The notes below the pieces were generated by a model. The model worked only from the letters and a program-made list of their open reading frames with translations. It ran no database searches and was not told the DNA's origin. DNA of 64,000 nucleotides, taken from NCBI RefSeq assembly GCF_963921235.1, contig NC_086108.1, forward strand, positions 61,940,001 through 62,004,000. Direction: 5' to 3'. Source of the DNA: Mobula hypostoma. Its lineage: Eukaryota. A program made the translations under genes and the position numbers. Positions 6,380 through 59,666 of this stretch are shown here, one piece after another (position 1 is the stretch's first letter; the number at the start of each line of letters is the position of its first letter).

Positions 6380-7380
6380 TTTTATAGGATACTGATTCTG
6401 GGGTTTATGCAAGCCCCTTCCTATTTTAACTGGGTTTGTCTTTACTCAACCATATTGTTGCTTGTGTCTAGCCCATGCTGCTGGGAACTGCTGACAAAGT
6501 AACCCATGGACACTGTCCTTGCTCCAGTCTCTGATGATCAGAGTGGCTGTGACTATGCTGTGTACTCTGTTGGCTGTACAAGTTTGCTGCCCCTTGCTTC
6601 TCCATATTATTTCTCCTTTTCCTGAATCTATACTGGCCCGTTTCACATACGACGTCTAGTCCAAGGATAGTACCGTCATTATTTGGACAGGCCCAGAAAT
6701 ACACTGGAAGCTGCACCCCACCGATATCAAGTATCTGTGTCACGCTTCTTTCTGCTTTCACCATATTTCCTCCTACACCCATAATATAAATAACCTGTCC
6801 AGTTGCTGGCAAGAGTAGGTCAGTTATCCGTACCAATGCTCGTGTCAATTAACATATCGCATTGCCAGCCCCTTATCAATGCTGCTGTGTATATCCGCAG
6901 GTTACCAGCGCTGGCAATGATGGTTGTCGCCACCTTTTTCTCCCCCGATCTAGAAGCTGTCTTCACCAGATCTATGATCTGATTGGCAGTCAGTTTGGTC
7001 AGACTAGGTGCTGATGGGGTGAGAGATTGCGTGTCTGCCGTGACTTTCACCTGTTTTTCTTTCCACATTTTTAGACACTGTTTCCAACCATGTCCTGATA
7101 GGTCACAGCTGTGGCACATCAATTCCTCTACTGTTTTATGTCTGGTCCAGCAGTCCTTCGCTAGGTACCCTGGTTGCTGGCACACAAAGCAAACTCTTTG
7201 ACACGTCACAACAGGTACATCCACTATAGTCTCCACTATCTCTAAATCTAAAACTTCCTGGGCTGACCTCAGGCCTTCCTTCATCATTTTCAGGAACACT
7301 GAGTCACCCCTCCCTGGATTAACCAACTCTGAACACTCTTCGATATTTACGTTCTGCATAATCCACGGCTCTCTCATCAC
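6380..7380 (-). pseudogene. Gag C-terminus with two zinc knuckles, aspartic protease and RT N-terminal stub
   Basis: CFVCQQPGYLAKDC and CHSCDLSGHGWKQC, then MLIDT and TILGLDV, then AWARHKQQYG*VKTNPVKI...QYPIK. Confidence 0.85.
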
Positions 7381-7384
7381 CTCT

Positions 7385-9450
7385 TTGAATCACCACAATT
7401 ATTGTTCCCTAGTTACTCTCACCCCTCCCCAGTCGCTGCCTTTAAATGTTTTCCCAAATTGTCTGCTCCTATCCCTCTCCAGCACTATGGTACAGAGTTG
7501 TGATAACTACCTCCAAAATGCTCTCCCACCAAGAGATCTGACATCTGACCAGGTTCATTTCCCAATACCAGATCAAGTACAGCCTTTCCTCTAGTTGGCT
7601 ATCTACATATTGCATCAGGAAACCTTCCTGAACACACCTAACAAACTTCACCCCATCTAAAACCCTTGCTCAGGGAAGGTGCCAGTCAATATCAAGAAAT
7701 TTATAATCTCACATCACAGCAACCCTATTATTATTGCAGTGTTCCAGAATCTGCCTCCCAATCTGCTCCTCAATATCCCTGTTACTATTGGGGGTTCAAT
7801 AAAAACACCCAGTAGAGTTATTGCCCCCCTCCTGTTTCTGACTTCCACACATACTGACTCAGCAGATAATCCCCCCATGACTTCCTCCCTTTCTGCAGCC
7901 GTGACTCTCTCCATGATTAGCAGTGCCACGCCCCCACCTCTTTTGCCTCCCTCCCTTTTGAAACACTTAAAACCCAGCACACTCAGCAGCCATTCCTGCC
8001 CCTGAGTCATCCAAGTCTCCGTAATGGCCACAACATCATAGCTCCACTAATTGATCCACGCTCTAAATTCATCTGCCTTGTTTATGATTCTCCTTGCATT
8101 AAAGTAGACCAACCTCAAACCATCTGGTTGAGTGCATCTTTGCTCTATCATCTGCCTATCCTCCTACAAGCTGTCTTTACTTGTGCACCAAATGCCCCAT
8201 CCTCTGCCTCTTCACTGTGGTTCCCACCTCCCTTCAAAACTAATTTAAATCCTCCTCAATAGCATTAGCAAACCTCCCCGCCAGGATGTTGGTCCCCCTC
8301 AGATTCAAGTGCAACCCATCCTTTTTGTACAGGTCACACCTGCCCCAGAAGAGGTCCCAATGATCCAGAAATCTGAATCCCTGCCCCCACTCCAAGCCTT
8401 CAGCCTTGCACTTATTCACCACCTTTTTCTATCCCCATACTCGCTGTCGCTTGGCACAGGCAGTAATCCCAAGATTACTACCCTTGAAATCCTGTTTCTC
8501 GGCATCCTTCCCAATTCCCTGTATTCTGCTTTCAGTCCTCCCTTTTTCCATCTACGTCATTGGTACCTATATGCACCATGACCTCTGGCTGCTCACCCTT
8601 CCATTTCAGGATATTGTGGACCCATTCAGAAACACCACGAACCCTGGCGCCTGGAAGACAAATTACCATCTGTGTTTCTTTTTCATGCCCAAAGAATCGC
8701 CTATCCGTTCCTCAAACTATACAGTCCCCTATTACTGCTGCCATCCTCTTCCATTCCCTACCCTTCTGAGCCACAGGGCCAGACTCAGTGCCAGGTAGGT
8801 CCCTCCCACCCCAACAGTACTCAAAGTGGAGTACTTATTGTTAAGGGGGATGGCCACAGTGGTGCTCTCCACTACCTGACACTCTCCATTCCCTCTCCTG
8901 ACAGTCACCCACTTATCTGTCTCCCGTGGCCCTGGTGTGACTACCTGCCTGCAGCTCCTATCGATCACCTCCTCACTTTCCCCCAGCAAATCAAAGGTCA
9001 TCGTGCTGCAGCTCCAGTTCCCTAACTCTGTCTCTAAGAACCTGCAGCTCAATTCACCTGGTGCATATGTGGCCACCAAGGAGGCTGGAAGTCTCCTAGA
9101 TATCCCACATCTGACACCCAGAGCAGAAAACTGACCTTGCAGTCATACACAATGTTCTTAAGTTAGAGGCAAAAAGGTGATATGGAAGTATCTTACCTCC
9201 TTACCTCACCTAGGCCCATCCTTGCCAAAGCCCTACTACTCTGACTCATGCTACTCCGACGACGGCTTCTTCAATAACTGCTCCGCTAGGCAGAGTCTCC
9301 CTTTACCCCGGAACCTTCTCAGCAGCCATGTGTGATGACAAGCTACTGCATCTGCACACTTCTTCCAATCGAATCTCCCAGCTTTTTAAATTTTCTCAGT
9401 GGCCTTAAACAATGATGAGCCACTGTGTCTGCACACTTTTCCCAGTCAAA
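7385..9450 (-). mobile_element. CR1 LINE 5' portion (ORF1 esterase plus APE start) inside the provirus gag
   Basis: ORF 8240-8422 (DHWDLFW...DGLHLN, SGNH) and ORF 7714-8031 (AITETW...GGGVALL, APE). No RT or 3' tail. Confidence 0.85.
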
Positions 9451-9650: not shown

Positions 9651-11349
9651 AGGCATGAATGAAGTCATCGGAGAAAAGTACTGGTAGTTATGAAACAGCC
9701 TCTTTGACATACTGTGGTACAGCAGGCATCATATCGAGATCTTTTTGGTGGAAAGAACTTCTTGGCCCAGCCCTACACAACATTTTATGTGGTACAGTTC
9801 AAAGAAAAATTCAGAACAATTCAAACAAATCCATATTTACAATGCTTCCTTTGATCTATACACCTCATTCACACCCATACTACAGACATCCAAGTACACA
9901 CAAATAATGAAATTAAGTCAGTGTTGTCTACCCATTGTTCAGAGTTGCACTTTAGATTTAATCTAAAATCCATATTCAGATCAGAAATTTGGTTATTGAA
10001 GTCAATATTAGCATAGTATTATAGAATGTGAATTACATAGGAACTTAATGAGTCATATCACCAAGATGCTTCTAAGAATTTTGGTGACAAGAGCTAAAGG
10101 TAAGATACAAGCTGAAATAGGCAAAGAACAATGTGGTTTTGTGGAAGACAAAGGTACAAGAAACACATTATTGATGTTAAGGATACTATCAGAATGAGCT
10201 ATTCAAGTGCAAAAAGATCTGTTTGTTTGTTTTATCAACTACACAAAAGCATTTGATAAAGTGAAGCACAATAAGTCATTTGAAATATTACAGAAAACTC
10301 TAGATCTAGATTCGAAAGACCTCTGCCTAATCAGAAATCTGTACTGGGAACAAACTGCTGCTATAAGAATAGATGGAGAAGTGAGTCAGTTTATGAAAAT
10401 CAAGAGAGGCATTGGACAAGGGTGTGTTTTCTCCCCTGATTTATTTAATGTGTACAGTGAAACGATATTACAAAAAATAAGAGACACCTTGGGAAGCAAT
10501 GTTGGCAGTGAAAACATCAATAATTTCAGATATGCAGATGACACTGTGTTAATTGCAAGTATGGAGGAAGAACTACAATACTTAATTGATATAATTGTTG
10601 AAGAAAGTGCAAAAGTGGGTCTATCTGTCAACTGCAAAAAGACAGAATGTATGGTGATATCCAAAAAGAAGGAGAATCCTATCTGCAGGCTGAGACTAAA
10701 TGGGGAAGACATAAAACAAGTACAGAACTTTTGCTGCTTAGGAAGCTGGGTGACATCAGATGGCAGGTGCGACTTGGACATCAAGAGAAGAATAGGGATG
10801 GCAAAAAACACCTTTACGAGAATGAAGAGTATACTGACCAATACTAAACTAAGCATGACAACCCGCCTCAAAGTACTGAAATATTACGTTTATCCAGTTA
10901 TGTTATATGGCTCAGAATGTTGGACAATATCTAGTAACATGAGGAAATGAATTGTAGCAGCGGAGTTATGGTTTTTGAAGAGGATGCAAAGAATATCATG
11001 GAAAAAACGAATATCTAACGAGGATGTCATGAACAGAGCAAACACAAAAAGAGAAATAATGTATGAGATCATGAAAAGGCAAGGTAACTTCATTGGACAT
11101 GTGATTAGGAAAGAGGAGTTAGAATGCTTGATAATTATGGGAAAGATTGAAGGGAAGAAAGCAAGAGGAAGACAAAGACAAATGCTGATGGAAACAGCAA
11201 CCAGAGAACTGGAAATGAATACCAATGAATTGATCCACTTGACCCAAAACAGGAGTGTGTGGGCCATGGCAGTCAAAGCTCAAACTGGGCATAGCACCTG
11301 ATGATGATGATGATTAGCTTAATGTCCTAACCCCCAAAACACCCTAACA
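9651..11349 (-). repeat. 5' LTR, probably split by the RTE insertion (9651-10050 plus about 11325-11349)
   Basis: 9655-9965 aligns with the 3' LTR. aaaacaccctaaca (11336-11349) resembles the 3' LTR end aaaaacactccaaca. cttaatg is duplicated either side of the RTE. Confidence 0.65.
10051..11314 (+). mobile_element. RTE-clade LINE, 5'-truncated
   Basis: ORF 10207-10950 is an RT (KAFD, QGCVFSP, YADD). C-terminal ORF 10975-11301 (GKIEGKKARGRQR). (TGA)n tail. Confidence 0.92.
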
Positions 11350-14843: not shown

Positions 14844-15491
14844 AACAACAGGAATTCTGCAGATGCTGGAAATTCAAGCAACACACATCAGAGTTGCTGG
14901 TGAACGCAGCAGGCCAGGCTGCATCTGTAGGAAGAGGTGCAGTCGACGATTCAGGCCAAGACCCTTTGTCAGGACTAACTGAAGGAAGAGTGAGTAAGGG
15001 ATTTGAAAGTTGGAGGGGGAGGGGGAGATCCAAAATGATAGGAGAAGACAGGAGGGGGAGGGATGGAGCCAAGAGCTGGACAGGTGATAGGCAAAAGGGA
15101 TACGAGAGGATCATGGGACAGGAGGTCCAGGAAGAAAGACAAGGCGGGGGGACCCAGAGGATGGGCAAGAGGTATATTCAGAGGGACAGAGGGAGAAAAA
15201 GGAGAGTGAGAGAAAGAATGTGTGTATAAAAATGAGTAACAGATGGGGTACAAGGGGAAGGTGGGGCCTTAGCGGAAGTTAGAGAAGTCGATGTTCATGC
15301 CATCAGGTTGGAGGCTACCCAGACGGAATATAAGGTGTTGTTCCTCCAACCTGAGTGTAGCTTCATCTTTACAGTAGAGGAGGCCGTGGATAGACATGTC
15401 AGAATGGGAATGGGATGTGGAATTAAAATGTGTGGCCACTGGGAGATCCTGCTTTCTCTGGCGGACAGAGCGTAGATGTTCAGCAAAGCGG
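14844..15491 (-). mobile_element. 5'-truncated Penelope-like element (GIY-YIG end plus terminal repeat)
   Basis: Minus strand encodes RFAEHLRSV...LPVATHFN...EATLRLEEQHLIFRLGSLQPDGMN. Degenerate hammerhead at about 14940-14976. Perfect 14-bp TSD tcattgttactggg (14830-14843, 15492-15505). Confidence 0.92.
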
Positions 15492-15894: not shown

Positions 15895-17878
15895 CCAACT
15901 CTGTCCTTGAGCACATCAACAAGTGTGTAGATAGAGTGACATGACAAAAACAAATAAAAGTTTTCCCCAATCAGAAACCATGGATGAACAGAGAAGTTCG
16001 CCTCCTGCTCAAAGCCAGAGATTCAGCCTTCAGGTCTGGAGACCGAGAGGCTTACAGCTCAGCCAGGGCCAACCTGAGGAGGAGAATCTCTCAGGCTAAA
16101 CACATATACAAACAGAGAATCGAGGAGATTTCAACTCCTTGGACCCCCGGTGCATGTGGCATGGCATACAGGTCATTACAGACTTCAAACCACCTAGTAC
16201 TGTGCCCCCTTCCAGCTCTGCTTCCCTCCCTGATGAGCTCAATTACTTCTACGCTCGCTTTGACCAGGAGAACAAGGAGGTCACCCTCAAAGCGGATCTC
16301 CCACCTGGTGAACTGCCTCTCTCACTTTCCACCTCTGATGTTTGCGCCACCATGAGCAGGGTGAATGTACGGAAGTCAGCTAGTCCAGATGGAAGACCTG
16401 GCCATGTGCGCAGAGTCTGTGCAGAGCAGTTGGCCGGGATCTTCACGGACATTTTCAATCTGTCCCTGGCCCAGGCAGTTGTCCCCACAAGCTTCAAGAT
16501 CACCACCATCATGCCAGTGCTAAAGCATTCCACTGCCACCAGCCGGAATGACTTCCGCCCAGTTGCACTCACCCCCATCATTGCAAAGTGCTTTGAGAGA
16601 CTGGTTCTATCACATCTGAAATCCTGTCTGACCACTCTACCCTGGATCCCATCAATTTGCCTATCGCACCAACAGGTCAACAGAGAACGCCATCTCCACA
16701 GCACTTCACTCTGCCCTGACCCACCTGGACAGCCCCAACTCTTACGTCAGAATGCTGTTCATTGACTCTAGTTCGGCATTCAACACTGTGATCCCCTCCA
16801 AGCTGATCGCCAAACTTCGCCAGCTTGGTATCAGCTCATCCCTCTGCAATTGGACCTTGGACTTTCTGACTAACAGACCCCAATCAGTTAACTTAGACAA
16901 CCTCTCCTCCTCCGCTCTCACCCTGAACACCAGCGTGCCTCAAGGCTGTGTGCTGAGCCCTCTTCCGTACTCCCTTTTCACCTATGACTGCATTCCTGTA
17001 TATGTTTCTAACTCCATAATCAAGTTCGCAGACGACACCACAGTGGTTGGCCTGATCAGAGGGAATGACGAGAAGGCCTACAGGGACGAGGTCCAGCACC
17101 TGGCCGTGCAATGTGCCAATAACAACCTGGCCTTTAACACCCAGAAGACCAAGGAGATCATTGCAGACTTCAGGCATGCTAGGAGCCACACTCACATCCC
17201 CATCTACATCAATGGAGCTGTAGTGGAACGTGTATCAAGCTTCAAATTCCTTGGTGTCCACATTTCCGATAATCTCACCTGGTCGCTGAACTCCTCCATC
17301 CTGATCAAAAAGGCGCAACAGTGCCTTTATTTCCTGCGGAGCATCAAGAAAGCTCACCTCTGTACCATTGAGAGCATACTCACCAACTGTATCTCAGTGT
17401 GGTATGGCAATTGTCCCATATCAGACCACAAAGCACTCCAGCATGTGGTGACAACTGCCCAGCGGATTATCGGCATCCAATTGCCCACCATTGAGAATAT
17501 CTACCATAAACGTTGCCTGGGCAGGGCGAAAAGCATTATCAGGGATGCATCTCACCCTAACCGTGGACTTTTTACTCTCCTCCCATCCAGTAGGTGCTAC
17601 AGGAACCTCCGCTCCCGCACCAGCAGGCACAGGAAGAGCTTCTTCCCTGAGGCTGTGACCCTGCTGAACCTCACATCACAGCGCTAAGCAGTATTGCACC
17701 CATATTGTACTGTCTCAGTACTTCTATATTTGTGTGACGTAGCACTTACAAATTAACTGTGAATAAAAAGTAAGTAACACTATTCTTTGCATTTCTGGTT
17801 AGATGCTAACAGCATTTCATTGGCTTTGTATCTGTACTCGGCACAATGACAATAAAGCTGAATCTAGTCTAAACTAAT
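15895..17878 (+). mobile_element. Rex1/Babar-like LINE, 5'-truncated and frameshifted
   Basis: ORFs 15984-16355, 16139-16765 (DFRPVALTP) and 16752-17687 ([13 protein letters not shown]). Tail gacaataaagctgaatcta. Confidence 0.92.
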
Positions 17879-20333: not shown

Positions 20334-23300
20334 TTCTACACCCGCCCTCACCAAAAATAGTTATGTCCTCATGGCTTTGTAGACCACTCAAACTTATCAG
20401 ACCATTATTAATAACACAGTATTCAAATTAATTTTGTGATTCAACCTGCAGATGCTGGAAATCCAAACCACACAAACAAAGTGCTGGAGGAACTCAGCAA
20501 ACCAGGCAGCATCTATGGAAAAAAGTATAGTCGACATTTCAGGCTGAAACCCTTTGGCAGGACTGGAAAAAAAAATCTGAGGAGTAGATTTAAAAGGTGG
20601 GGGGAGGGGAGAGAGAACGACCAAGTGATGGGTGAAACCTGGAGGGGAGGGATGAAGTAAAGAGTTTGGAAGTTGATTAGTGAAATGAGGTGAGAGAGGG
20701 AAAAGGGGATGGGAAATGGAGAAGGAGCAGAGAGTTTGTCTCCCTTTGTCCCCCTGCTCCCAGTGAGTTCTGCACCCGCCATGACACTGAGCTCTCCTCC
20801 CGCTGCCTCCGCCTCCAAGCCCATTTCGTTGGTGAGGACTCTCCATCCCGCACCAATGACCCCTTCTCCCATTTTCAACCCACCTCCTCTTCCTGGACGC
20901 CCCGCCCCGGTCTTCTGCCTACCCTGGACCTTTTCATTGCCAACTGCCGATGGGACATTAACCGTCTAGACTTTAACTCTCCTCTCTTCTATTCCAACCT
21001 CATTCCTTCTGAATGCTCAACTCTCCATTCCCTCCACACTAATCCTAACCTCACCATCAAACTCGCAGATAAGGGAGGTGCTATACTATAGTAGTCTGGC
21101 GAACTGACCTCTACTTTGCTGAGGCCCAGTGCCAACTTTCAGACACCTCCGCTTACTCACCCCTCGAACAGGACCCCACTAAGGAACACCAGGCCATCGT
21201 CTCTCACACCATCACCAACCTTATTGACTCTGGAGATCTCCTGTCCACCACCACTGACCTCATAGTTCCCGTACCCTACACCTCCTGTTTCTACTTCCTA
21301 CCCAAGATCCACAAACCTGCTTGTCCAGGTAGACCCAATATTTCAGCTTGTTCCTTCCCCACTGAATCCATATCTGCATACCTCGACTGTGTTTTATCCC
21401 CCTGGTTCAGTCCCTTCCTACCTACATCTGTGACACCTCACATGCTCTTGATCATTTCAAGGATTTTAAGCTGCCTGGTCCCCATCATCTCATTTTTACT
21501 GTGGATGGCCAGTCCCTATAGACCTCCATCCCACACTAGGAAGGCTTCAAGCCCTCTGTTTTTTCTGGACACCAGACCTAACCAGTTCCCCTCCACCACC
21601 ACTCTCCTCCACCTAGCAGAACTTGTCCTCACTCTCAATAATTTTTCCTTTGGCACCTTCCACTTCCTTCAAACAAAAGGTGTAGCCGTGGGCACTCACA
21701 TGGGCCGCAACTATGCCTGCTTGTTTGTCAGCTGTGTGGGACAGTCTGTGTTCCAAGCCTACACTGGTGATCGTCCCACTCTTTTTCTATGCTACATCGA
21801 TGACAGCACTGGTGCTACTTCCTGCACCACTCGTCTCTTCATCCACTTTGCCTCCAACTTCCACCCTGTCCTCAAATTCACTTGGTCCATTTCTGATACC
21901 TCCCTTCCCTTTCTTGATCTCAATGTCTCTATCTCCAGAGACAGCATATCCACCGATGCCTATTACAAACCCACAGACTCTCACAGTTACCAAGACTACA
22001 CCTCATCCCACGTTACCACTTGTAAAAATGCCATTCCCTTTTCTCAATTCCTCCATCTCCACCACATCTGCTCTCAGGATGAGGCTTTTTATTCTCGAAT
22101 GAAAGAGATGTGCTCCTTTTTCAAAGAAAGAGGCTTCCCTTCCTCCACCAACAACGCTGCCCTCAACCGCCCCTCTTCCATTTCATGCACGTCTGCTCTT
22201 ACCCCAACCTCCTGCCACCCTATCAGGGATAGGATTCCTTTTGTCCTCACCTACCACCCCACCAGCCTCTGAGTCCAGCACATAATTCCCTGAAACTTCC
22301 GCCACCTCCAACGGAATCCCACTACCAAGCACATCTTTCCCTCTGCCCCAAGTTCTGCTTTCTGCAGGGATCGCGCCCTACACAACCCCCTTGTCCATTC
22401 ATCTCTCCCCACTGATCTCCCTCCTGGCACTTAACTTTGCAAACAGAACAAGTGCTACACCTGCCCCTACAACTCCTCCCTCACTACCACCCAGTGCCCT
22501 AAACAGTCCTTCCAGATGAGGCGACACTTTACCTGTGAGTCTGATGGGGTCATTTACTGTGTTCAGTGCTCCTGGTGTGGCCTCCTGTACATTGGTGAGA
22601 CTGACATAGATTGGAAGACTGCTTTACAGAGCATCTACACTGTCTGCCAGAACAAGCGGGATCTCCCAGTGCCCACCCATTTTAATTCCACTTCCCATTC
22701 CCATTCTGATATGTCCATCCATGGCCTTCTCCACTGTTGTGATGAGGCCACGCTTAGGTTGGAGAAGCAACAGCTTATATTCCATTTGGGTAGTCTCCAA
22801 CCTAATGGCATGAACATTGATTTCTCAAGCTTCCAGTTATGCCTCCCAATATCCTCCCCCCTTCTCTATTTCCCATCCCCTTTTCCCTCTCTCACCTCAT
22901 CTCACCAATCAAGTTCACAGCTCCACGTTTCACCTATCACCTGGTGGTTCTCTCTCCCTTCCCCCGACCTTTTAAGTCTACTGCTCAGCTTTATTTCTTC
23001 AGTCCAGCCAAAGGGTTTTGGCCTGAAACATTGACTGTACCTTTCTCCCCTATAGATGCTGCCTGGCCTGCTGAGTTCCTCCAGCATGTTGTGTGTGTTG
23101 CAGCATATGCCAGCCTATCTGGGGGTTTCCTGACTCTGAGACATCCTCATCTCACTTTCAGCTTCTTTGGCCTCAGCCACTCCTTGTGACTGTTCTTGTC
23201 TGCTTGGGGATGTCTTCCCCCTGTCTGTCACTTGTACCTCTACATGATTCTGTTCCCCTTGCCCCCTGACTGAACTCAGCTTTATCTCCAATTATATGGG

Positions 23301-25035: not shown

Positions 25036-28000
25036 AGCATTTGGGATTGATTGGCAAAAGAAAATTAAAGGAAGGCAAGGGCAGGCACAGCAGCCATTGT
25101 CTAAGTGGACAGAGTCAGAGCGGTGATCTTAAATTTAGCTCTTCGAGGCTTCAGCGAAGAGAAGCTTCAGTCAGAGAAGGTGAAAGAAAAGCTGAACAAA
25201 TAAGTTTCTTTCTCCCTTCCCTTCATATGTCCCCTAGTTACCTGCTCAAATAGGACAATAGAGATGCCAGGCAGGATAGTTGAATGCTCCTCATGTAGGA
25301 TGTGGGAAGACAGGGAGTCCTCCAGTGTCCCTAATAACTATAAGTGCGAGAAGAGCATTCAGCTGCGGCTTCTAACAGTTTGTGTTAAGGAGCTGGAGCT
25401 GGAACTGGATGAACTCTGGATCATTGGGAGGCTGGCAGGATGATAGATAGGACATATGGAGAGGTAGTTGCACCCAAGGGGCAGGACACAGGAAACTGGG
25501 TGACAGTCAGGAAGGAGAAAGGGTTATACAGCCAGTTGAGAGTACCCCTGTGGCCACCCCCCTCAACAACAGGTATACCACTTTGGATGCTGTCGGTGGC
25601 GGGGCGGGGATTGACCGAACAGAGGAAAGTCACAGTGGTTAGGTCTCTGACACTGAGTCTGGCTCTGTGACTTTAAAAGGGAGGTGAGAAGAAGAAGCAT
25701 GCTGTGGTGATAGGGGATTTGTTAGTTAGGAGAATAAACAGGGGGCTCTGTGGGTGAGAACAAGATTCCCAGTTGGTTTGTTGCATCCCGGGTGCCAGGG
25801 TTCTGGATATATCGGATCAAGTCCTCAGCATTCTTAAATGGTAAGGTGAACAGCCAGAAGCCATAGTCTATGTAGGTAACAATGACATGTGTAGGACAAG
25901 TGACAAGGTTCTGCATAGGGAATTCAGGGAGTTAGGTGCTATGCTGAAGGGCAGGACCTCCAGAGATGTGATCTCAGGATTGCTACCTGTGCCACGTGCC
26001 AGTGAGACCAGAGCTAGGAAGATTATACAGTTTAATACATGGCTAAGGACTTGGTGTAGGAAGGAGGGCATAAGAGTTTTGGATCATTGGTCTCTTCCTG
26101 GGAAGGTGGCACCTGTACAAACAGGACAGGTTGTATCCGAACTGAGGGGGACTAATAACTTAGTGGGAAGGTTTGTTAATACTGCATGGCGGGGTTTAAA
26201 CTAAAGTTGCTAGTGGATGGGAACTAGGGTGCCGGAACAGTAAGAGGAGAGGTTATGGAGGCAGATGTTGGTAAGGCCTCATACAAAGTTAGGAATCAAA
26301 AGGTTGAGCATGGTGCAACTAGTGTCCTGCACTGCCTATATTTCAACGCAAGAAGTATCATAGGAAAGGCGGATGATAGTGCTGAAGATGAGGTAACTAG
26401 TTTACAAACAGAGGCAATGTGTAGTGGGAAGAGGCTGTTGTTAGGGGAAACTTATTGTCAACAGGATGAGTTGCAACGTAAAAGGCGGACAAAATTGAAA
26501 AGGGTGAATACAGGACTGAAGGTCTTAAATTTGAATGCACACAGTACACAGAATAAAATAGATGAACTTGCAGCTCAGTTACAGATTGGCATGTGTGATG
26601 TTGTAGGCATCATTGAATCATAGCTGAGAGAAAATTATACTTAATGCCCAAGGATACACATTATATCAAAAGGACAGGCAGGAAGGCAGAGGGGGCGGCA
26701 TTGCGCTGTTGGTAAAAAATGAAATTCAATCATTAGAAAGAGTTGACATAAGTTCAGAAGGTGTTGAATCATTGTGGATAGAGCTAAAGAACTGCAAGTG
26801 TAAAAAGATCTTCATGGGAGTTGTATACAGACCACCCAAAACAGTAGTAAGGATGTGGTCTATAAATTGCAACGGGAGATAGAAAAAGCATGCTTAAAGG
26901 GCAATGTTACAATAATCATGGGGGATTTCAATATGCAAGTAGATTGTTGCCGGATTCCAGGAGGAGGAGTTTCTAGAATGCCTTTGAGATGGCTTTTTAG
27001 AGCAGCTCATGGCTGAGCCCACTGGGGAAATCAGCTATTCTGCAATGAACCAGAATTGATTAGAGAGCTTAAGGTAAAAGAACCCTCAGGGGAAGTGATC
27101 ATAATATGATCAAATTCACCCTGAAATTTGAGAGGAGAAGCTAAAGTCAGATGCTTCCGTATTGCAGTGGAGTAAAGGGAATGACAGAGGCATGAGAGAG
27201 GAGTTGGCCAGAATTAATTAGAAAAGAACACTGGCAGAGATGACAGCAGAGCAGTAATGTCTAGGATTTCTTGATGCAAAGGGAAAGAGGTATTATAAAA
27301 GCAAGATGACACAGCCATGGTTAACAAGAGAAATCAAAGCCAACATAAAAGCCAAAGAGAGGGCATATAACAGAGCAAAAATTAGTGGGAAGTTAGAGGA
27401 TTTGGAAGCTTTTCAAAACCAACAGGAAACTAAAAATGTCATTAAGAAGGTAAAGATGGAATTTGAAAGTCAGCTAGCCAATAACATTAAAGGAGATATC
27501 AGAAGTTTCTTCCGATACATACATAAAGTGTAAAAGAGAGGTGAGAGTGGATATCGGACCACTGGAAAATGATGCTGGAGAGGTAGTAATGGCAGACAAG
27601 GAAATGGCAGAAGAACTGAATAAGTATTTAGCATCATTTGTTCACTGTGGAAAACATTAGCATTATGGTGGAAATTCCAGGTGTCAGGGATCATGAAGAG
27701 GGTGAAGTTACCATTAGCAGAGAAAAGGTTCTTGGGAAACTGAAAGGTCTGAAAGTAGATAGGTCATCTGGACCAGATAGTGTAGCCCAGAGTTCTGAAA
27801 GAGGTAGCTGAAGAGATTGTGGATTAATTAGTAACAATCTTTCAGGAATCTTTTGATTCTGGAATGTTTCCAGTGTACTGGAAAATTGCAAACGTCATTC
27901 CACTCTTCAAAAAGAGAGAGAGAGACAGACAGAAGAAAGAAAACTATAGGCCAGTTAGTCTAAGGACAAATCTCTTGGAATTCTTTGAAGAAATAAGCTG

Positions 28001-37900: not shown

Positions 37901-38099
37901 TCCCCTGTTGCTATTCCCAGCGGCAACAAGTATACCCCTTTGGATATTGCTGTGGGGTAATGACCCATCGGGCACCTGCAGCAGCAGTTGGGACTGTGGT
38001 TCCCCTGTTGCTATTCCCAGCGGCAACAAGTATACCCCTTTGGATATTGCTGGGAGGGACGTCCCATCGGGCACCTGCAGCAGCAGTCGGGGCTGTGGT
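37901..38099 (+). repeat. 100-bp tandem duplication in CR1 ORF1
   Basis: tcccctgttgctattcccagcggcaacaagtatacccctttggatattgctg starts at 37901 and 38001. Confidence 0.95.
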
Positions 38100-39067
38100 T
38101 GGCACTGGGGCTCAGCAGGGAAGGGTAAAGTCGGGCAGAATGATAGTAATAGGAGACTTGATAGGGGAATGGACAGGAGATTCGATGGCCATGGAAGAGA
38201 TGCCAGGATGGTGTATTGCCTACAAGGTGCTAGGGTGCAGGATGTCTCAGAACGACCACAGAAGATTCTCAAGAGGGAGGGTGAGCAGCCAGAGATCATG
38301 GTGCACATTGGCACCAATGACTTAGGGTAAAAGCGAGGGAGGTCTTGCACAGTGAGCATAGGGAGTTAGGGAAGAGGCTGCAGAGCAGAAACTCCAAGGT
38401 AGTAATCACTGGGTTACTCCCAGTACCATATGCTAGTCAGGGCAGGAATAAGATGATAGCACAGATGAATGAGTGGTTTAGAATGTGGTGCAGGTTGCAA
38501 GATTTCAGATTTCTGGATGATTGGGATCTCTCTGGAGAAAGTATGACCTGTACAAAAAGGACAGGTTACACCTGAACCCGATTGGGGCCAACATCTTTGC
38601 AGACAGGTTTGCTAGAGCTGTTAGTGAGGATTTAAACTAATTTGGCAGGTAGATGGGAACTAGAGTGATAGGGCTGAAGATGGGGCAGTTCGAAGTACAA
38701 GTCGATGCATTGTGAAGTGAAACTGTGAGGAATGACAGGCAGATGATAGGGCAAAATTGCAGTCAGTAGGATAAGTTGAAGTGCAATATGGGGGTCAAGA
38801 TTAAAAAGGGTGATGCATACAGGACTGGAGGTGTTATATTTGAATTCACACAGTATATGGAATAAGGTAGAAGACCATGTAACGCAGTTAGAAATTGGCA
38901 GATATGATGTTGTGGGCATCACTGAGTCATGGCGCAAGGAAGATTATAGTTGGGAGCTTAACATCCAAGGATACACCTTGTATTGAAAGGACAGGCAGGT
39001 AGGCAGAGGGGATGTGGTGGTTTTGTTGGTAAAAAATGAAATAAAATCCTTAGAAAGTGGTGACATG

Positions 39068-41136
39068 GGGGGACTTCCGGCGAGGCACGAGGCGAGATGG
39101 CAGCACAGCACTGAGCACTGACATATAACCCTCCTTTTTCAAGTTCTTTAGGGTTCATAGATGGTCTTAACACAAGATTGAGTTGGGGAAAGATATAACT
39201 AAAGACATGATCTCAAAAAAAGATCAAAATTCAACCAGGAAACAAGATACCAGCAGATGACACCAAGCTAGCGATTCATCCGAGGAAATAGCTTTGCTAA
39301 TTAAGCAAACAATGGCAACGGAGATGGAATCGCTGCAAGAAACGGTAGTCCACATGCTAAAGAAGTCGCTGGAAAAGGCTCTTGACCCCATACAGAAGCA
39401 TATGGCAGAGAATGGCAACATTCTCCGGTCATTAAAGGAGCAAGCGGACATTCATGCTAAAAAATTTAGCACGGTCTTCAACAAAATAGACAACATTCAG
39501 ATTTGCTTACGCAAGAATGAGAAAGTTACTAACTCCTGTCTCGCGGAGGTGTCTAAGATATGGAAGAAGCTAAACGACTTGGAGGACAAGTCCAGGAGAA
39601 ACAATGTGCGGCTGGTCAACTTACCGACAGATGCTGAGGGCGACGATCCAAGAGGTTACCTCCAGGAGATGCTGCCTAATTGGATTCCAGCGCTCAAGAA
39701 TTCCCACAGCACTCCATTGGAGATCGATAGAATACATAGAATCTTTTCAAACAACACCTCAACACCGCGGACCATGGTTTTTAGGCTTCTACGGTACACC
39801 GACCAGCAGGCTATCCTGGAGGGCGCGAGGAAAGCCAAGCCTACTCTCCCTGATGGCACCCAGCTACAGTTCTTCGCCGACTACATCCCCGGCACGATGT
39901 AGGAACAGCAGGGATACAAAGAGATCAGCACTAAGCTTCGACGGAAGGGGATCGACTCATTCTTCATACACCCTGCAATTTTGAGAGTGAATATAAAGTG
40001 GATAGAGATGTCATTTAACTCGGCAGAGGAAGCTAAAGAAGCTCTGAATTCATCAGTGCTGAGAGATATGGAAGACGACCCTTGGCAAAGTCCACACGCC
40101 CGTCGGGAGGAGATGGAACTGCATTAAGAACTCGGGCTAGCCTGTATGCGCAATCTAACAGGCACGGGCAAGTTAACGTCCTGGGTGTGAAGTTTTCTGG
40201 TTATTCTTTTATTGGAAAGTCATTCGATGTACTTTTGTATTTAGTTAATTAAGGAGCCAATTTGTCTCTGAGTATTGCAGGTGAGAGTTTTAAGGTAATG
40301 GCTCAGTTAACTTGTTAGTACAAGGATAACATGGTAAGGTGATACAAGTCCGCCTAGATTTATACTTTTTATCTTTTACTTTCTAAGGTGATATTCAATA
40401 TACCCAAATGTCATACTTCATCAAGAATGAAGCTGAAAAACAGCAGTTTGTTCTGATTCTGAATAACTTTAGTTGTACATGTTCATTTCGGGTTATGTCT
40501 CCAGTAGACTTGTTTACGTTCCTGGGCGCCAGATAAGACATCACTGGTGCCATTGCAAAGCGACAGACTATTAAACCAACAGTTTCTCACAAGAGAGCTG
40601 TTGGGATCTTGATTACGTGGTATATTATATTTGAGACGGAAATGGTTTTAATTATATAGGTTAATGGGTTTGTCCAGGTTTTTTTTTTCTTGTCTCTTTG
40701 ATATGATTGTCTATGAGAACTGCTTTGCCTTTCTAATTTGTTGGTGCGAGAGGGGGGCGGTTATTGTTCAGTGTCTGACATTGCTAAGTGACACTCACAG
40801 ATGTTACAAAGTAAAGGGTTGAATGTGAGGGGTGATGGGAGGGGTGGTGGGAAGGGGGTAACTCAGGGCTCCACCACCAACTTACAACAACAGATTCAGG
40901 GGAGGATGAGCAACACAGATAAATTAGAAAATCTTACTGTTGTACAAAATAGGAATGCTTTGTCTGTGTATGCACTACTATTCAGTTGGTTGGTGGAGGG
41001 GAGAGGGATGGGGGGAGAGAGGGGTGGAAGGGGGATGGTGCTGAAGGTTGGGATAAACAGTCAAAATGTAATTGGCAACTGGTTGTATTGAAAGTAATTT
41101 GTTGGAGTTGCAATAAAAAATTAGTAACAAATAAAA
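39068..41136 (+). mobile_element. ORF1-only L1-derived element (HAL1-like)
   Basis: 5' gggggacttccgg start. L1 ORF1 (LNDLEDKSRRNNVRLVNLP...IDRIHR...QFFADY). No ORF2 motifs seen. aataaa and an A-rich end. 16-bp TSD agaaagt(g/t)gtgacatg. Confidence 0.85.
39208..40126 (+). pseudogene. L1-type ORF1 protein (coiled coil, RRM, CTD) with premature stops
   Basis: ATG at 39208, with in-frame stops near 39258 and 39900 bracketing ORF 39294-39902. Confidence 0.8.
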
Positions 41137-42836
41137 AGAAAGTTGTGACATGTGATCAGAAGATGTAGAACCCTTGTGGGTAGAGGTAAGAAACTGCAAG
41201 GGTAAAAAGACCCTGATCCCTGATGGGAATTATATACAAGCCTCCGAACAGTAGCCAGGATGTGGGATATAAATTTCAAAGAGAAATAGAAAAGGCGTGT
41301 AATAAGGGCAATGTTACGATAGTCATGGGGGATTTCAATATGCAGGTAGATTGGGAAAATCAGGTTGGTGTGGGATTCCAAGGGAGGAATTTGTAGAATG
41401 CCTAAGAGATGGCGTTTTAAATCAGCTTGTTACAGTGGTATAAGGGGAATTATAGAGGTGTGAGAGAGAAAATGAAAAAGTTGATTGGAAGGGGACACCA
41501 GCAGGAACGACGACAGAACAGCAATGGTTAGAATTTCTGGGGGAGATTCGGAAGGTGCAGGATAGATAAATCCCAAAGAAGAAAAAGAATTCCAAAGAGA
41601 GGATAAGGAAAGATTGGCTGCCAAGGGAAGTCAAAGACAGCATAAAAGGAAAAGAGAGGGCATATAATATAGCAAAAATTAGTGGGAAGTTAGAGGATTC
41701 GGAATCTTTTAAAAACCAACAGAAGGTAACTAAAAAAGCCAAAAAGAGAGAAAAGATGAAAAATGAAGCTAGACAGTGATATAAAAGACCATACCAATTG
41801 TTTTTAAAACATACATACAAAGTAAAAGAGAAGTGAGAGTGGATATCAGACCCCTGGAAAATGATGCTGGAGAGGTAATAATGGGGGGGAGGGACAAAGA
41901 AATACCAGACAAATGTACGTATTTTGCGCCATTACAAGTAGTAATGCAGAAATTTGAAGTTTAAGGGGGCAGCAATGAATGTAGTTGCTATTACTAAGGA
42001 GAAAGTTCTTGGGAAGCTGAAAGGTCTGAAGGTAGATATGTCACCTGGACCAGATGGTGTACATCCCAGAGTTCTAAATGAGGTAGCTGAAGAGATTGTG
42101 GATTCATTAGTAACAATCTTTCAAGAATCATTAGATTCTGGACTTGTTCCAGTGTACTGGAAAATTGCGTATGTCACTCCACTCTTTAAAAAGTGAGGCA
42201 AAAGAAAGAACATTATGGGCCAGTTAGCCTGACTTCCGTGGTTGGGAAGATACTGAAGTCCATTATTAAGGATGAGCTTTCAGGGTACTTGGAGGCACAT
42301 GATAAAGCAGGCCAAAGTCAGCATGGTTTGTTTAAGGGGAAAGTCTTGCCTGACACAAGTGTTGGAATTCTTTAAGGAAATAACAGGCAAGATAGACTAA
42401 AGAGAGTCAGTGGATGTTGTTTACCTGGATATTCAGAAGGCCTTTGACAAGGTACCACATATGAGGCTGCTTAACAAGAGTCGGTGGTATTTCAGGAAAG
42501 ACTTCTGGTAAGATGGCAGCATGTTCAAACGCAGTGACCTCTCGGGGGGCCAGTCAGAAGTGTTTTTGTCCTTTTTGTGATCACAGGATAATGTTGGACA
42601 TTAAGAACATCAGGTACTGCAGGTCTACTCCATCAGCAAGCTGCTCAGTGGTGGAGCAGCTAGAGGAGCTGGACTGGTGCGGACTGCGTTACTGCCTGCT
42701 ACAGGAAGGCCTCAGGGTCGGTGCCCGAAGGCAGAGTGCAGTCTATCAGCGAACGACTGCCTTGGACCTTCCTCCTGTGATTGCAAGAACATGTTAGATA
42801 CTGTAATGTAGAATGCTGCAAGTATATTTCCCTTAC

Positions 42837-43053
42837 AACAGGAATTCTGCAGATGCTGGAAATTCAAACAACACACATCAAATTTGCTGGTGAACGCAGC
42901 GGGCCAGGCAGCATCTCTAGGAAGAGGCGCAGTCGACGTTTCAGGCCAAGACGTCCTGATGAAGGGTCTCAGCCTGAAACGTCGACTGCACCTCTTCCTA
43001 GAGATGCTGCCTGGCCTGCTGCGTTCACCAGCAACTTTGATGTGTGTTGCTTG
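42837..43053. mobile_element. Palindromic PLE-terminus derivative
   Basis: About 80-bp inverted arms (42870-42950 versus 42966-43049) with few mismatches. No TSD seen. Confidence 0.88.
42953..42986 (+). ncRNA. Minimal type I hammerhead ribozyme motif
   Basis: gtc-CTGATGA-agg(gtctcag)cct-GAAA-c-GTC-gac: core boxes, stem II, short stem I and a vestigial stem III, as known for PLE hammerheads. Activity untested. Confidence 0.7.
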
Positions 43054-54282: not shown

Positions 54283-56002
54283 ACATAGAAACATAGAAAA
54301 TAGGTGCAGGAGTAGGCCATTCGGCCCTTTGAGCCTGCACCGCCATTTATTATGATCATGGCTGATCATCCAACTCAGAACCCCGCCCCAGCCTTCCCTC
54401 CATACCCCCTGACCCCCGTAGCCACAAGGGCCATATCTAACTCCCTCTTAAATATAGCCAATGAACTGGCCTCAACTGTTTCCTGTGGCAGAGAATTCCA
54501 CAGATTCACCACTCTCTGTGTGAAGAAGTTTTTCCTAATCTCGGTCCTAAAAGGCTTCCCCTTTATCCTCAAACTGTGACCCCTTGTTCTGGACCTCCCC
54601 AACATCGGGAACAATCTTCCTGCATCTAGCCTGTCCAATCCCTTTAGGATTTTATACGTTTCAATCAGATCCCCCCTCAATCTTCTAAATTCCAACGAGT
54701 ACAAGCCCAGTTCATCCAGTCTTTCTTCATATGAAAGTCCTGCCATCCCAGGAATCAATCTGGTGAACCTTCTTTGTACTCCCTCTATGGCAAGCATGTC
54801 TTTCCTCAGATTAGGGGACCAAAACTGCACACAATACTCCAGGTGTGGTCTCACCAAGGCCTTGTACAACTGCAGTAGTACCTCCCTGCTCCTGTACTCG
54901 AATCCTCTCGCTATAAATGCCAGCATACCATTCGCCTTTTTCACCGCCTGCTGTACCTGCATGCCCACTTTCAATGACTGGTGTATAATGACACCCAGGT
55001 CTCGTTGCACCTCCCCTTTCCCTAATCGGCCACCATTCAGATAATAATCTGTTTTCCTATCTTTGCCAACAAAGTGGATAACTTCACATTTATCCACATT
55101 AAATTGCATCTGCCATGAATTTGCCCACTCACCCAACCTATCCAAGTCACCCTGCATCCTCTTAGCATCCTCCTCACAGCTAACACTGCCACCCAGCTTC
55201 GTGTCATCCGCAAACTTGGAGATGCTGCATTTAATTCCCTCATCCAAGTCATTAATATATATTGTAAACAACTGGGGTCCCAGCACTGAGCCTTGCGGTA
55301 CCCCACTAGTCACTGCCTGCCATTCTGAAAAGGTCCCATTTATTCCCACTCTTTGCTTCCTGTCTGCTAACCAATTCTCCATCCACATCAATACCTTACC
55401 CCCAATACCATGTGCTTTAAGTTTGCACACTAATCTCCTGTGTGGGTCCTTGTCAAAAGCCTTTTGAAAATCCAAATATACCACATCCACTGGTTCTCCC
55501 CTATCCACTCTACTAGTTACATCCTCAAAAAATTCTGTGAGATTCGTCAGACATGATTTTCCTTTCACAAATCCATGCTGACTTTGTCTGATCATTTCAC
55601 CGCTTTCCAAATGTGCTGTTATCACATCCTTGATAACTGACTCCAGCAGTTTCCCCACCACCGACGTTAGGCTAACCGGTCTATAATTCCCCGGTTTCTC
55701 TCGCCCTCCTTTTTTAAAAAGTGGAGTTACATTAGCCACCCTCCAATCCTCAGGAACTAGTCCAGAATCTAACGAGTTTTGAAAAATTATCACTAATGCA
55801 TCCACTATTTCTTGGGCTACTTCCTTAAGCACTCTAGGATGCAGACCATCTGGCCCTGGGGATTTATCTGCCTTCAATCCCTTCAATTTACCTAACACCA
55901 CTTCCCTACTAACATGTATTTCGCTCACTTCCTCCATCTCACTGGACCCTCTGTCCCCTACTATTTCTGGAAGATTATTTATGTCCTCCTTAGTGAAGAC
56001 AG
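54283..56002 (-). mobile_element. Young 5'-truncated CR1 LINE with an uninterrupted RT frame
   Basis: ORF 54375-56108 has NYRPVSLTS, DFQKAFD, GVPQGSVLGP and KFADD with no stops. The first ~35 aa come from flanking DNA. (gaaacata) tail. Confidence 0.95.
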
Positions 56003-57456
56003 AAGGGGTTGGTTGCAGGAGGGGCAGCTTAACTGGCAGCTCAATGTTACAGCATTCTGTTGATTTAGACATGTTAGAACAGGAGAGATTAAAGGGGAAG
56101 AGTGGCATTATTAATCAAGAAGAATGTCACAGCAGTGCTCAGTCAGAAGAGACTGAAGAGTTCCGTTAGTTAGGCTTTATGGATAGAACTGAGGACTAGG
56201 AAAGGTATGACTATGTGAATAGGATTATATTATCAACAACCCAATAATCTGGATGATTTCGAGGAGCAAATTTGCAGAGAGATTGCAGACTGTTGCAAGA
56301 AACATAAGGTTGTGATATTAGATGATTTTAACTTTCCACATATTGACTGGGACTCCCATACTGTAAAAGGTCTAGAGTTTGTCAAATGTGTTCAGGAAAA
56401 TTTCCTTCATCAGTACATTGAAGTCCCAGCTAGAGAGAGAATGCAGTACTAGATCTCCAGTTAGGGAATGAGACAGGGCAGGTGACAGAAGATTGTATCG
56501 GGAAACACTTTGCATCTAGTGATCACAATACTATTAGTTTCAAGGTGATTATGGGAAAGGATAGGTCTGGTCCTTGGGCTGAGATTCTAAATTGGAGAAA
56601 GACCAATTTTGATGGTATGAGAAAGGATCTGGCAAGTGTTGATTGAGACTGGTTGTTTTCAGACAAAGTTGTACTTGGTAAGTGGGAGGCATTCAAATGT
56701 GAAATTTTGAGAGTACAGAATTTATATGTTCCTGTCAAAATAAAAGACAAGGATAACAGATTTTGAGAATTTACTTTTTGGAAGATATTGAGGCTCTGGT
56801 TAGGAAGAAGAGGGAGTTGCATTGCAGGTACAGGCAGGAAGGGAAAATAAGGGACTTGAGAAGTATAAGGAATGCAAGAGCACAGTTAAGAAGGAAATCA
56901 GGAGGGCTAAAAGAAAGCATGAGGTTGCTCTAGTAGAGAAGATGAAGAAAAATACCAAAGGTTTCTACAAATCAATGAAGAGCAAAAGGATAGCAAAGGA
57001 CAAATTTGGTTCCCTGGAAGATCAGAGTGGTAATCAATGCATAGAGCCGAAAGGGATCGCAGATGGATTTTAAGCATTTTTATTTACTTGGGAGACAAAA
57101 ACAGAGTCTACGGATGTGAGGCAATGCAGGAAAAAAGTTATGGACCTTATACAGATTACAGAGGAGGAGGTGTTTGCTACATTGAGGCAAATTAGGGTGG
57201 ATAAATCCCCAGGGCCTGGCAAGATAGTTCCTCTGACCCTGTAGGAGGCTAGTACAGAAATTGCAGGGGCCTCAGCAGAGATATTTAAAACACCCTTAGC
57301 CACAGATGAGGTGCTGGAGAATTGGAGGATAGATAATGTTGTTCCGTTATTTAAGAAAGCTTCCAAAAATAAGACAGGACATTATAGGCTGGTGACTCTG
57401 ACATCAGTCGTGGGAAAGTTATTAGAGGTTTTCTAAGGGACTGGATCATTTTTTAT

Positions 57457-59044: not shown

Positions 59045-59460
59045 CTTGGCGTTCATAATTTGGAGTATTGTGTCCAGTGTTCGTCACCTCAGAATTAATC
59101 CAAGACCTTGGCCTCACTACTTCCCTTGCACTGGATGGTTGATTTCCTCAATTGCAAACTCCAATCAATTCGGAATAGCAACAATATCTCCTCCATGATC
59201 TCCACAAGGCTGTTTGCGTAGCCCCTGCTCTACTCATTTTACACTTATGACTGTGACTAAACACAGCTCCAATGTCATATTCAAGTTTGCTGACGACACC
59301 ACTGCTATAGGCTGAATCAAGGGTGGTGATGAATCAGCATACAGGAGGGAGATTGAGAATCTGGCTGAGTGGTTCTATAACAACAACCTTTTACTCAATG
59401 TCAGCCAAGATCAACTGGCTGATTATTGATTTCAGGAGAAAGAAACCAGATGTCCATGAG

Positions 59461-59666
59461 CAACACACATAAAAGTTGCTGGTGAACGCAGCAGGCCAGG
59501 CAGCATCTCTAGGAAGAGGTACAGTCAATGTTTCAGGCCGAGACCCTTCAGCCCGAAACATCGACTCTAACTCTTCCTAGAGATGCTGCCTGGCCTGCTG
59601 CGTTCACCAGCAACTTTTATGTGTGTTGCTTGAAATTCCAACATCTGCAGAATTCCTCGTGTTTGT
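59461..59666. mobile_element. Palindromic PLE-terminus derivative
   Basis: Perfect 58-bp inverted arms (59461-59518, 59571-59628). TSD catgag(c) at 59455 and 59667. Confidence 0.92.

Follow-up and report, generated by a model that had tools for sequence, protein, structure and literature searches.

An L1 derivative that carries only ORF1 interrupts a CR1 LINE in the ray Mobula hypostoma, occupying 39052..41152 of the window, by which we mean the whole 64,000-nucleotide (64-kb) stretch of DNA that we analyzed. This 2.1-kb element is a genuine insertion, and what it retains of ORF2 is a start codon and the first few codons, joined at a sharp junction to the 3' tail. We favor, at a probability of about 0.5, an origin as an L1 copy that lost ORF2 and whose short RNA was copied a few times through the ORF2p of intact relatives; the window copy may thus belong to a small enzyme-borrowing family.

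An insertion inside a CR1 element

The locus reads as follows.

38100..39051, forward strand: 5' part of the host CR1 LINE, with a decayed esterase-type ORF1 (Lipase_GDSL_2, E 0.003) and the start of the endonuclease
39052..39067, forward strand: left target-site duplication (TSD), of which 15 bp are certain and the 16th, the final G, is not
39068..39206, forward strand: 5' UTR of about 140 bp, a G-run and then a conserved L1 start common to the related contig L001
39207..40127, forward strand: L1 ORF1 (coiled coil, RRM, C-terminal domain), 306 codons with two in-frame stops
40128..40905, forward strand: native spacer between ORF1 and ORF2, 778 bp as against 835 bp in L001, with about 70% identity to the pre-ORF2 spacer of L001 in its 3' part
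40906..40944, forward strand: ORF2 remnant, start codon at 40906, 13 codons, stopping short of the first endonuclease motif
40944..40945, forward strand: sharp deletion junction; aligned pieces from runs X1 and X15 end at 40944
40945..41136, forward strand: 3' tail of 192 bp containing a G-rich tract, two AATAAA signals (41112 and 41130) and an A-rich end that is short
41137..41152, forward strand: right TSD, one mismatch in 16 against the left TSD
41153..42480, forward strand: continuation of the host CR1 LINE, with the rest of the endonuclease and the start of the RT, decayed, the frame continuing

Direct comparison of the two flanks confirmed the 16-bp TSD with one mismatch that the first-pass annotation had described, and a chance origin is ruled out by random zone pairs drawn within the 64-kb window, none of which (0 of 3002) gave a match of that grade. 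Because the last G of the duplication may belong to the G-run at the 5' end of the element, only 15 bp are certain. TT precedes the left TSD, so that the site reads TT/AGAAA, which we take to resemble an L1 endonuclease site. Joining the flanks without the insert restores the CR1 endonuclease frame, and the empty site is seen both in two CR1 paralogues within the window and in many contigs from all four public runs that we aligned, so the CR1 does resume exactly after the insert, as had been claimed. The continuation of the host matches the CR1 paralogues at 26735-27961 and 55435-55885 of the window. On the 5' side of the host CR1, 37901-38100 is a 100-bp tandem duplication (92%).

A dead ORF1, its native spacer and a trace of ORF2

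The element carries L1-clade traits at both ends and in between: a target duplication, AATAAA, an A-rich end and an ORF1p of the coiled coil-RRM-CTD type. Its 5' end, which had been called intact, is so by comparison with L001, to which it is 83% identical over 48 bp. A profile of 34 ORF1-related sequences matches human L1 ORF1p structures (E 1e-11), and the match of ORF1 to Pfam Transposase_22 is weak (E 0.035). The single L1 ORF1 of the first-pass annotation is therefore right as to type, but the frame is not whole: in-frame stops at codons 18 and 232 mean that the window copy is dead and cannot supply ORF1p now. A domesticated ORF1 gene like L1TD1 was also considered and is ruled out by the two stops and by the TSD inside CR1. 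Against L001, ORF1 has a dN/dS of 0.13 over 290 codons, a value that mirrors autonomous history, so that it does not decide the question of selection. The 24 listed ORF1 sites at which this copy departs from the family comprise 14 replacements, 9 silent changes and 1 stop; the silent share among all possible single ORF1 changes is 21%.

Behind ORF1, the annotation had seen a kilobase with no ORF2 in it. The element indeed contains no endonuclease or RT catalytic motif, and the sole significant tblastn match listed (about 6 of 120 ORF2 queries) is an N-terminal piece; the kilobase nevertheless proves to be native spacer followed by a 13-codon remnant of ORF2, which leaves the element with the HAL1-type trait of an ORF1 without ORF2 coding capacity. 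Residues 5-82 of P0103, a full-length ORF2 protein, match 40720-40944 (tblastn, E 7e-21), and a DNA match of about 70% to L001 over 40749-40941 runs from the end of the spacer into the first ORF2 codons. The tblastn search for ORF2 remnants across 40130-41130 thus found one, at 40906-40944, albeit short. We had also entertained a new, unrelated 1-kb 3' UTR, which is ruled out by the identity of this sequence as native fish-type inter-ORF spacer. The last 200 bp of the spacer (40720-40944; L001 1749-1934) are about 70% identical at the DNA level between distant relatives, and the rest of the spacer is not conserved. From its conservation, this spacer end is a candidate signal for ORF2 translation that the deleted copy has retained.

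Missing at the junction are some 3.7 kb of ORF2 (a size taken from P0103) and part of the 3' UTR. The tblastn matches listed include no ORF2 C-terminus in the 192-bp tail, none of 15 candidate proteins matches the frame that crosses the junction at E 10 or better, and Rfam gives no match inside the element. The polyadenylation signal of the annotation is there, in two copies of AATAAA, and so is its A-rich end, though this is short and no long poly(A).

Relatives that carry ORF2

One of 16 candidate stretches, the metagenome contig L001, is a relative of the element. It has the same 5' start, an ORF1 at 74% DNA identity (dS 1.46 to the window ORF1), the longer spacer and an ORF2 whose open frame includes an endonuclease domain. 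P0103 matches human ORF2p at E 1e-148 and displays the L1-type APE endonuclease and RT of the parent ORF2; it forms a Logan pair with P0002, the closest ORF1 match, and the two are probably one element, both lying on 5308-bp contigs. The window ORF1 protein is 71-77% identical to those of these fish-type autonomous L1s (L001, P0002/P0103). A Tx1 element, judged by the matches of both ORF1 and ORF2 to human L1, appears ruled out. An ORF2-bearing parent lineage exists and could supply the enzyme. The search for a partner autonomous L1 accordingly yielded relatives with ORF2, but none from a named ray, and a HMMER search with the ORF2 piece of L001 added no named ray protein. ORF1 relatives were absent from 42 stretches in viral contigs and 22 in prokaryotic contigs, and the junction pattern had no match in viral contigs; these searches have no bearing on rays.

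The junction in public runs

Parts of the element are held by 20 of 24 listed runs, from 9 studies and under 7 organism labels, each with at most 0.46 of the element's words. We aligned to the element and its CR1 flanks the contigs of four of the 24: X1, a DNA run of organism A; X15, under the same label and presumed to be an RNA run, its RNA status being a guess; X5, of organism B; and X11. All 30 bins of the element are covered in each. The median summed depth over 5' UTR, ORF1 and spacer (1925 in X1, 1477 in X5, 572 in X11) is far above the depth of about 4-15 of most long single pieces and therefore suggests that the family numbers of the order of 100 copies, a rough figure, as summed depth is not copy number. 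Relative to the body, the two tail bins stand at 4.9x in X1, 4.3x in X5 and 3.0x in X11, the three large runs, and at 0.7x in X15. Such an excess is as expected if a partner family shares the tail, or from 5'-truncated ORF2-bearing copies, and together with the pieces that end at 40944 it points to a partner in the same genomes.

Does the junction recur? In the letter rows listed, distances to the end ("from_end") were counted to the end of the aligned piece, a rule checked on X15 record 17, where 4 of 4 sites fit; the alignment of this record starts at 39072, with 34 other letters ahead. In X1, distances of 49, 41 and 6 at 40896, 40904 and 40939 all lead to 40944, neither of the two contigs over 40939 (summed depth 567) aligns beyond 40944, and record 8 is aligned to 40944 with its final two letters different. 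None of eight X11 contigs aligns beyond 40948. X5 has one bridging piece, from 40839 or earlier to at least 40969, and X15 another, which covers at least 40916-40962; the side past the junction is short, with 25-30 letters certain in X5 and 18 in X15 against the tool's bar of 31. By alignment, then, the joined form is present outside the window in two of four runs (X5 and X15). For most of the traceable copies the alignment breaks off at the junction, which is how ORF2-bearing ones would behave, so the suspicion that other copies contain ORF2 may hold for the majority, but not for the two bridging contigs. Among the pieces listed for the four runs, none spans the element or ties the junction to a flank, and neither these runs nor the 64-kb window revealed a second insertion site with the junction and its own TSD. 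More than one copy of the ORF2-less form is probably present, though such copies look like a minority.

Whether the bridging contigs are other copies or the same locus in related animals is the point on which the main alternative turns. This alternative supposes a one-off event, either a template jump during cDNA synthesis by the element's own ORF2p or a loss of 3.7 kb after insertion, with the bridging contigs as orthologues in related rays; we regard it as likely, if less so than our favored reading. The ends and the TSD would appear identical under it, the window copy has a decayed ORF1, and BLAST of the element against the 64-kb window found no second copy. Bridging is nil in X1 (0 of 2) and X11 (0 of 8), and the great length of the bridging piece in X5 is what one would expect from a single diverged locus. 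Organism A does have an orthologue-like contig: X1 record 5, with 4 differences in 254 and a depth of 12.6, is by sequence a probable near-identical orthologue of the window copy, and at 8 of 40 listed sites X1 shows a depth of 12.0-12.7 without the family letter. Organism B, with a word share of 0.29-0.34 versus 0.20-0.24 in organisms C-E, may hold an orthologue of the window locus as well. Against a single locus, the organism A orthologue has many window letters, whereas the bridging pieces have the family letter at 40939, as do all contigs over that site in the four runs, never the window's. X15 has nothing but the family letter at all eight orthologue-type sites, which makes another copy a likelier source of its bridging piece than the orthologue. 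The evidence thus favors other copies as the source of the bridging contigs, at least for X15. Also against a single locus, the deletion takes nearly all of ORF2 and leaves everything that a trans-mobilized RNA requires.

At the other extreme, most of the roughly 100 copies might be ORF1-only members of an abundant HAL1-type family, the tail excess coming from a separate partner. Depth is flat over 5' UTR, ORF1 and spacer in all runs, and since single sites elsewhere show losses of depth as great as 90%, the bridges missing from X1 could have been lost in assembly. The long single-copy contigs of X11, none of whose eight bridges, tell against such abundance, as do the differing last two letters of X1 record 8, which reaches 40944, and the presence of ORF2 in the closest complete relatives; we consider this the least probable of the readings.

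A third possibility is that the junction is a splice. Parent RNA spliced from inside the ORF2 start to the 3' UTR might occasionally be retrotransposed in trans, leaving dead-end copies with one common junction and no self-propagating master. X15 has a piece of depth 17.1 that ends at 40944 and three pieces (13.5 combined) that begin after 40904, one of them bridging; this fork is present in the presumed RNA run and not in the DNA run X1 of the same organism label, although the RNA nature of X15 is a guess. The final three matched letters at the junction start with GT, but the L001 codons at the matching place form no consensus donor. Spliced human L1 RNAs do retrotranspose, according to the available part of PMC5860796, yet the splices of the SpIREs described there lie in the 5' UTR or lead into ORF1 and do not cross ORF2. 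On balance we hold a splicing origin to be improbable.

Kinship of ray and teleost ORF1

Among named proteins, one of the stingray Hypanus sabinus is nearest to the window ORF1, with 80% identity across the open piece; identities to teleost proteins are 80% for Larimichthys (216 aa), 75% for Aldrovandia and 70% for two notothenioids. Descent from a mammalian L1 is not supported, the nearest named relatives being ray and teleost proteins at 70-80%; no mammalian protein stands among the named ORF1 matches. The 70-80% identity between ray and marine teleost ORF1 involves proteins P0005, P0009, P0012, P0013 and P0064, the teleosts being Larimichthys, Aldrovandia, Dissostichus and Chaenocephalus. 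For Aldrovandia affinis, 12 or more gene models represent this ORF1, several of them of 256 aa. Teleost ORF1s of different orders are 73-77% identical to one another, and the ray ORF1 is comparably close to them. In a midpoint-rooted tree of 39 rows (rows below 220 aa, P0018 and P0040-P0062 excluded), the window and Hypanus sequences pair (100/97) within a polytomous group (88/87) that includes these teleost proteins, with other teleost lineages outside; lacking an outgroup, the tree does not tell which way any transfer went.

Horizontal transfer of an L1 lineage between rays and marine teleosts is possible on this evidence and would explain the identity. The kinship is noteworthy because L1 seldom moves between vertebrate lineages, as stated in the accessible portion of PMC7070016; the transfers among marine eukaryotes covered in the corresponding portion of PMC6036668 are mostly Tx-like cases. 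ORF1 is also more conserved in non-mammals than in mammals, which counts against the transfer reading. A fuller version of the story, in which a ray HAL1-type family evolved independently by near-clean removal of ORF2, occupies several sites, still makes RNA and depends on an L1 lineage that has crossed between rays and marine teleosts, seems to us unlikely.

Other elements in the window

A 579-aa open frame at 54375-56114, reverse strand, encodes a reverse transcriptase (Pfam RVT_1, E 1e-31) similar to that of the host CR1 and is, by sequence, a young CR1-type copy. Two further LINE reverse-transcriptase frames, at 16100-17687 and 10198-10950, are presumably Rex/Babar-like and RTE-like, respectively, and we take the decayed frames at 21073-23034, which have no Pfam match at 0.001, to resemble a Penelope RT and a GIY-YIG nuclease. 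On the reverse strand at 6820-7389, a frame that has a pair of zinc-knuckle-like motifs and looks like a protease at its end (again no Pfam match at 0.001) is perhaps a decayed LTR element. A repeat of about 110 bp forms head-to-head inverted pairs, with a hairpin, at 42835-43053, 59459-59663 and 14845-14975; its microRNA matches are sub-threshold.

Discussion

We propose the following history for the element, in keeping with an ORF2-deleted L1 copied a few times in trans. A fish-type L1 with a short 5' UTR, ORF1, a long spacer and ORF2 would have multiplied in rays until there were of the order of 100 copies that had 5' ends. One of these copies would have suffered an internal deletion from ORF2 codon 13 into the 3' UTR. 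With its promoter region, ORF1 and polyadenylated end retained, it could still have yielded a 2.1-kb RNA, which its own ORF1p would coat and the ORF2p of intact relatives would reverse-transcribe. A few copies with an identical junction would have resulted, the window copy being one that inserted into CR1 and later decayed. Observation supplies the anatomy, the junction, the TSD, the decay, the ORF2-bearing relatives and the bridging contigs in two data sets; from these we infer an RNA that was without ORF2 when it inserted, an origin of the bridging contigs in other copies, and mobilization in trans. In the same way, "retrotransposed as a unit" and "family", both terms of the first-pass annotation, go beyond what was seen directly. 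Its HAL1-like family borrowing ORF2p is upheld as regards an ORF1-only L1 derivative, an ORF2-bearing lineage and two bridging contigs; the ORF2 remnant and the many copies that end at the junction weigh on the other side.

HAL1 (half-L1) elements of mammals were reportedly described by Smit in 1999 and by Bao and Jurka in 2010. They are ORF1-only L1 derivatives with several independent origins in mammals, by the available parts of PMC5753468 and PMC13756887, and are thought to depend on ORF2p in trans, by those of PMC5786205 and PMC3627910. Like them, the ray element is L1-derived, has ORF1 only, retains both ends and would require ORF2p in trans, and if our best reading holds it may be expected to work like HAL1. 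Unlike them, it resides in a cartilaginous fish and retains a long fish-type spacer and the ORF2 start codon, and the number of copies with its junction looks low. Guinea pig HAL1 is reported to have maintained ORF1 coding capacity for 29-44 Myr; the ray element so far gives no such sign. Among the literature matches listed (the best 20 of 208, all 7 of 7, the best 20 of 36 and the best 20 of 3440), from a library with few subscription journals, no title or abstract concerns HAL1 in cartilaginous fish.

The closest comparison in layout is the fish-type autonomous L1 (PMC5381506), with which the ray element shares a short 5' UTR, an ORF1 of about 900 bp, a spacer of several hundred base pairs and an AATAAA end, but its ORF2 is cut to 13 codons, and its tail has a G-rich tract whereas most non-mammalian L1 3' UTRs have none (PMC5381506). 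Human SpIREs, as presented in the available part of PMC5860796, are likewise internally shortened L1s with normal insertion hallmarks and a common junction; they lose 5' UTR or ORF1 sequence, whereas the ray element loses ORF2. HeT-A (Jockey clade) and Ag-Sponge (CR1 clade), listed in the accessible part of PMC5786205, are non-autonomous LINE derivatives with an ORF1, but they belong to other LINE clades and hosts, and the ray element shows no telomere association.

Either way, the kind of element is already known. As a single locus, it would be an ordinary L1 with an internal deletion. Should dispersed copies share its junction, ORF1-only parasitism of L1 would not be a mammalian speciality, and the retention of the spacer and of the start codon of ORF2 would reveal how families of this sort originate and which features ORF2p requires of a foreign RNA.
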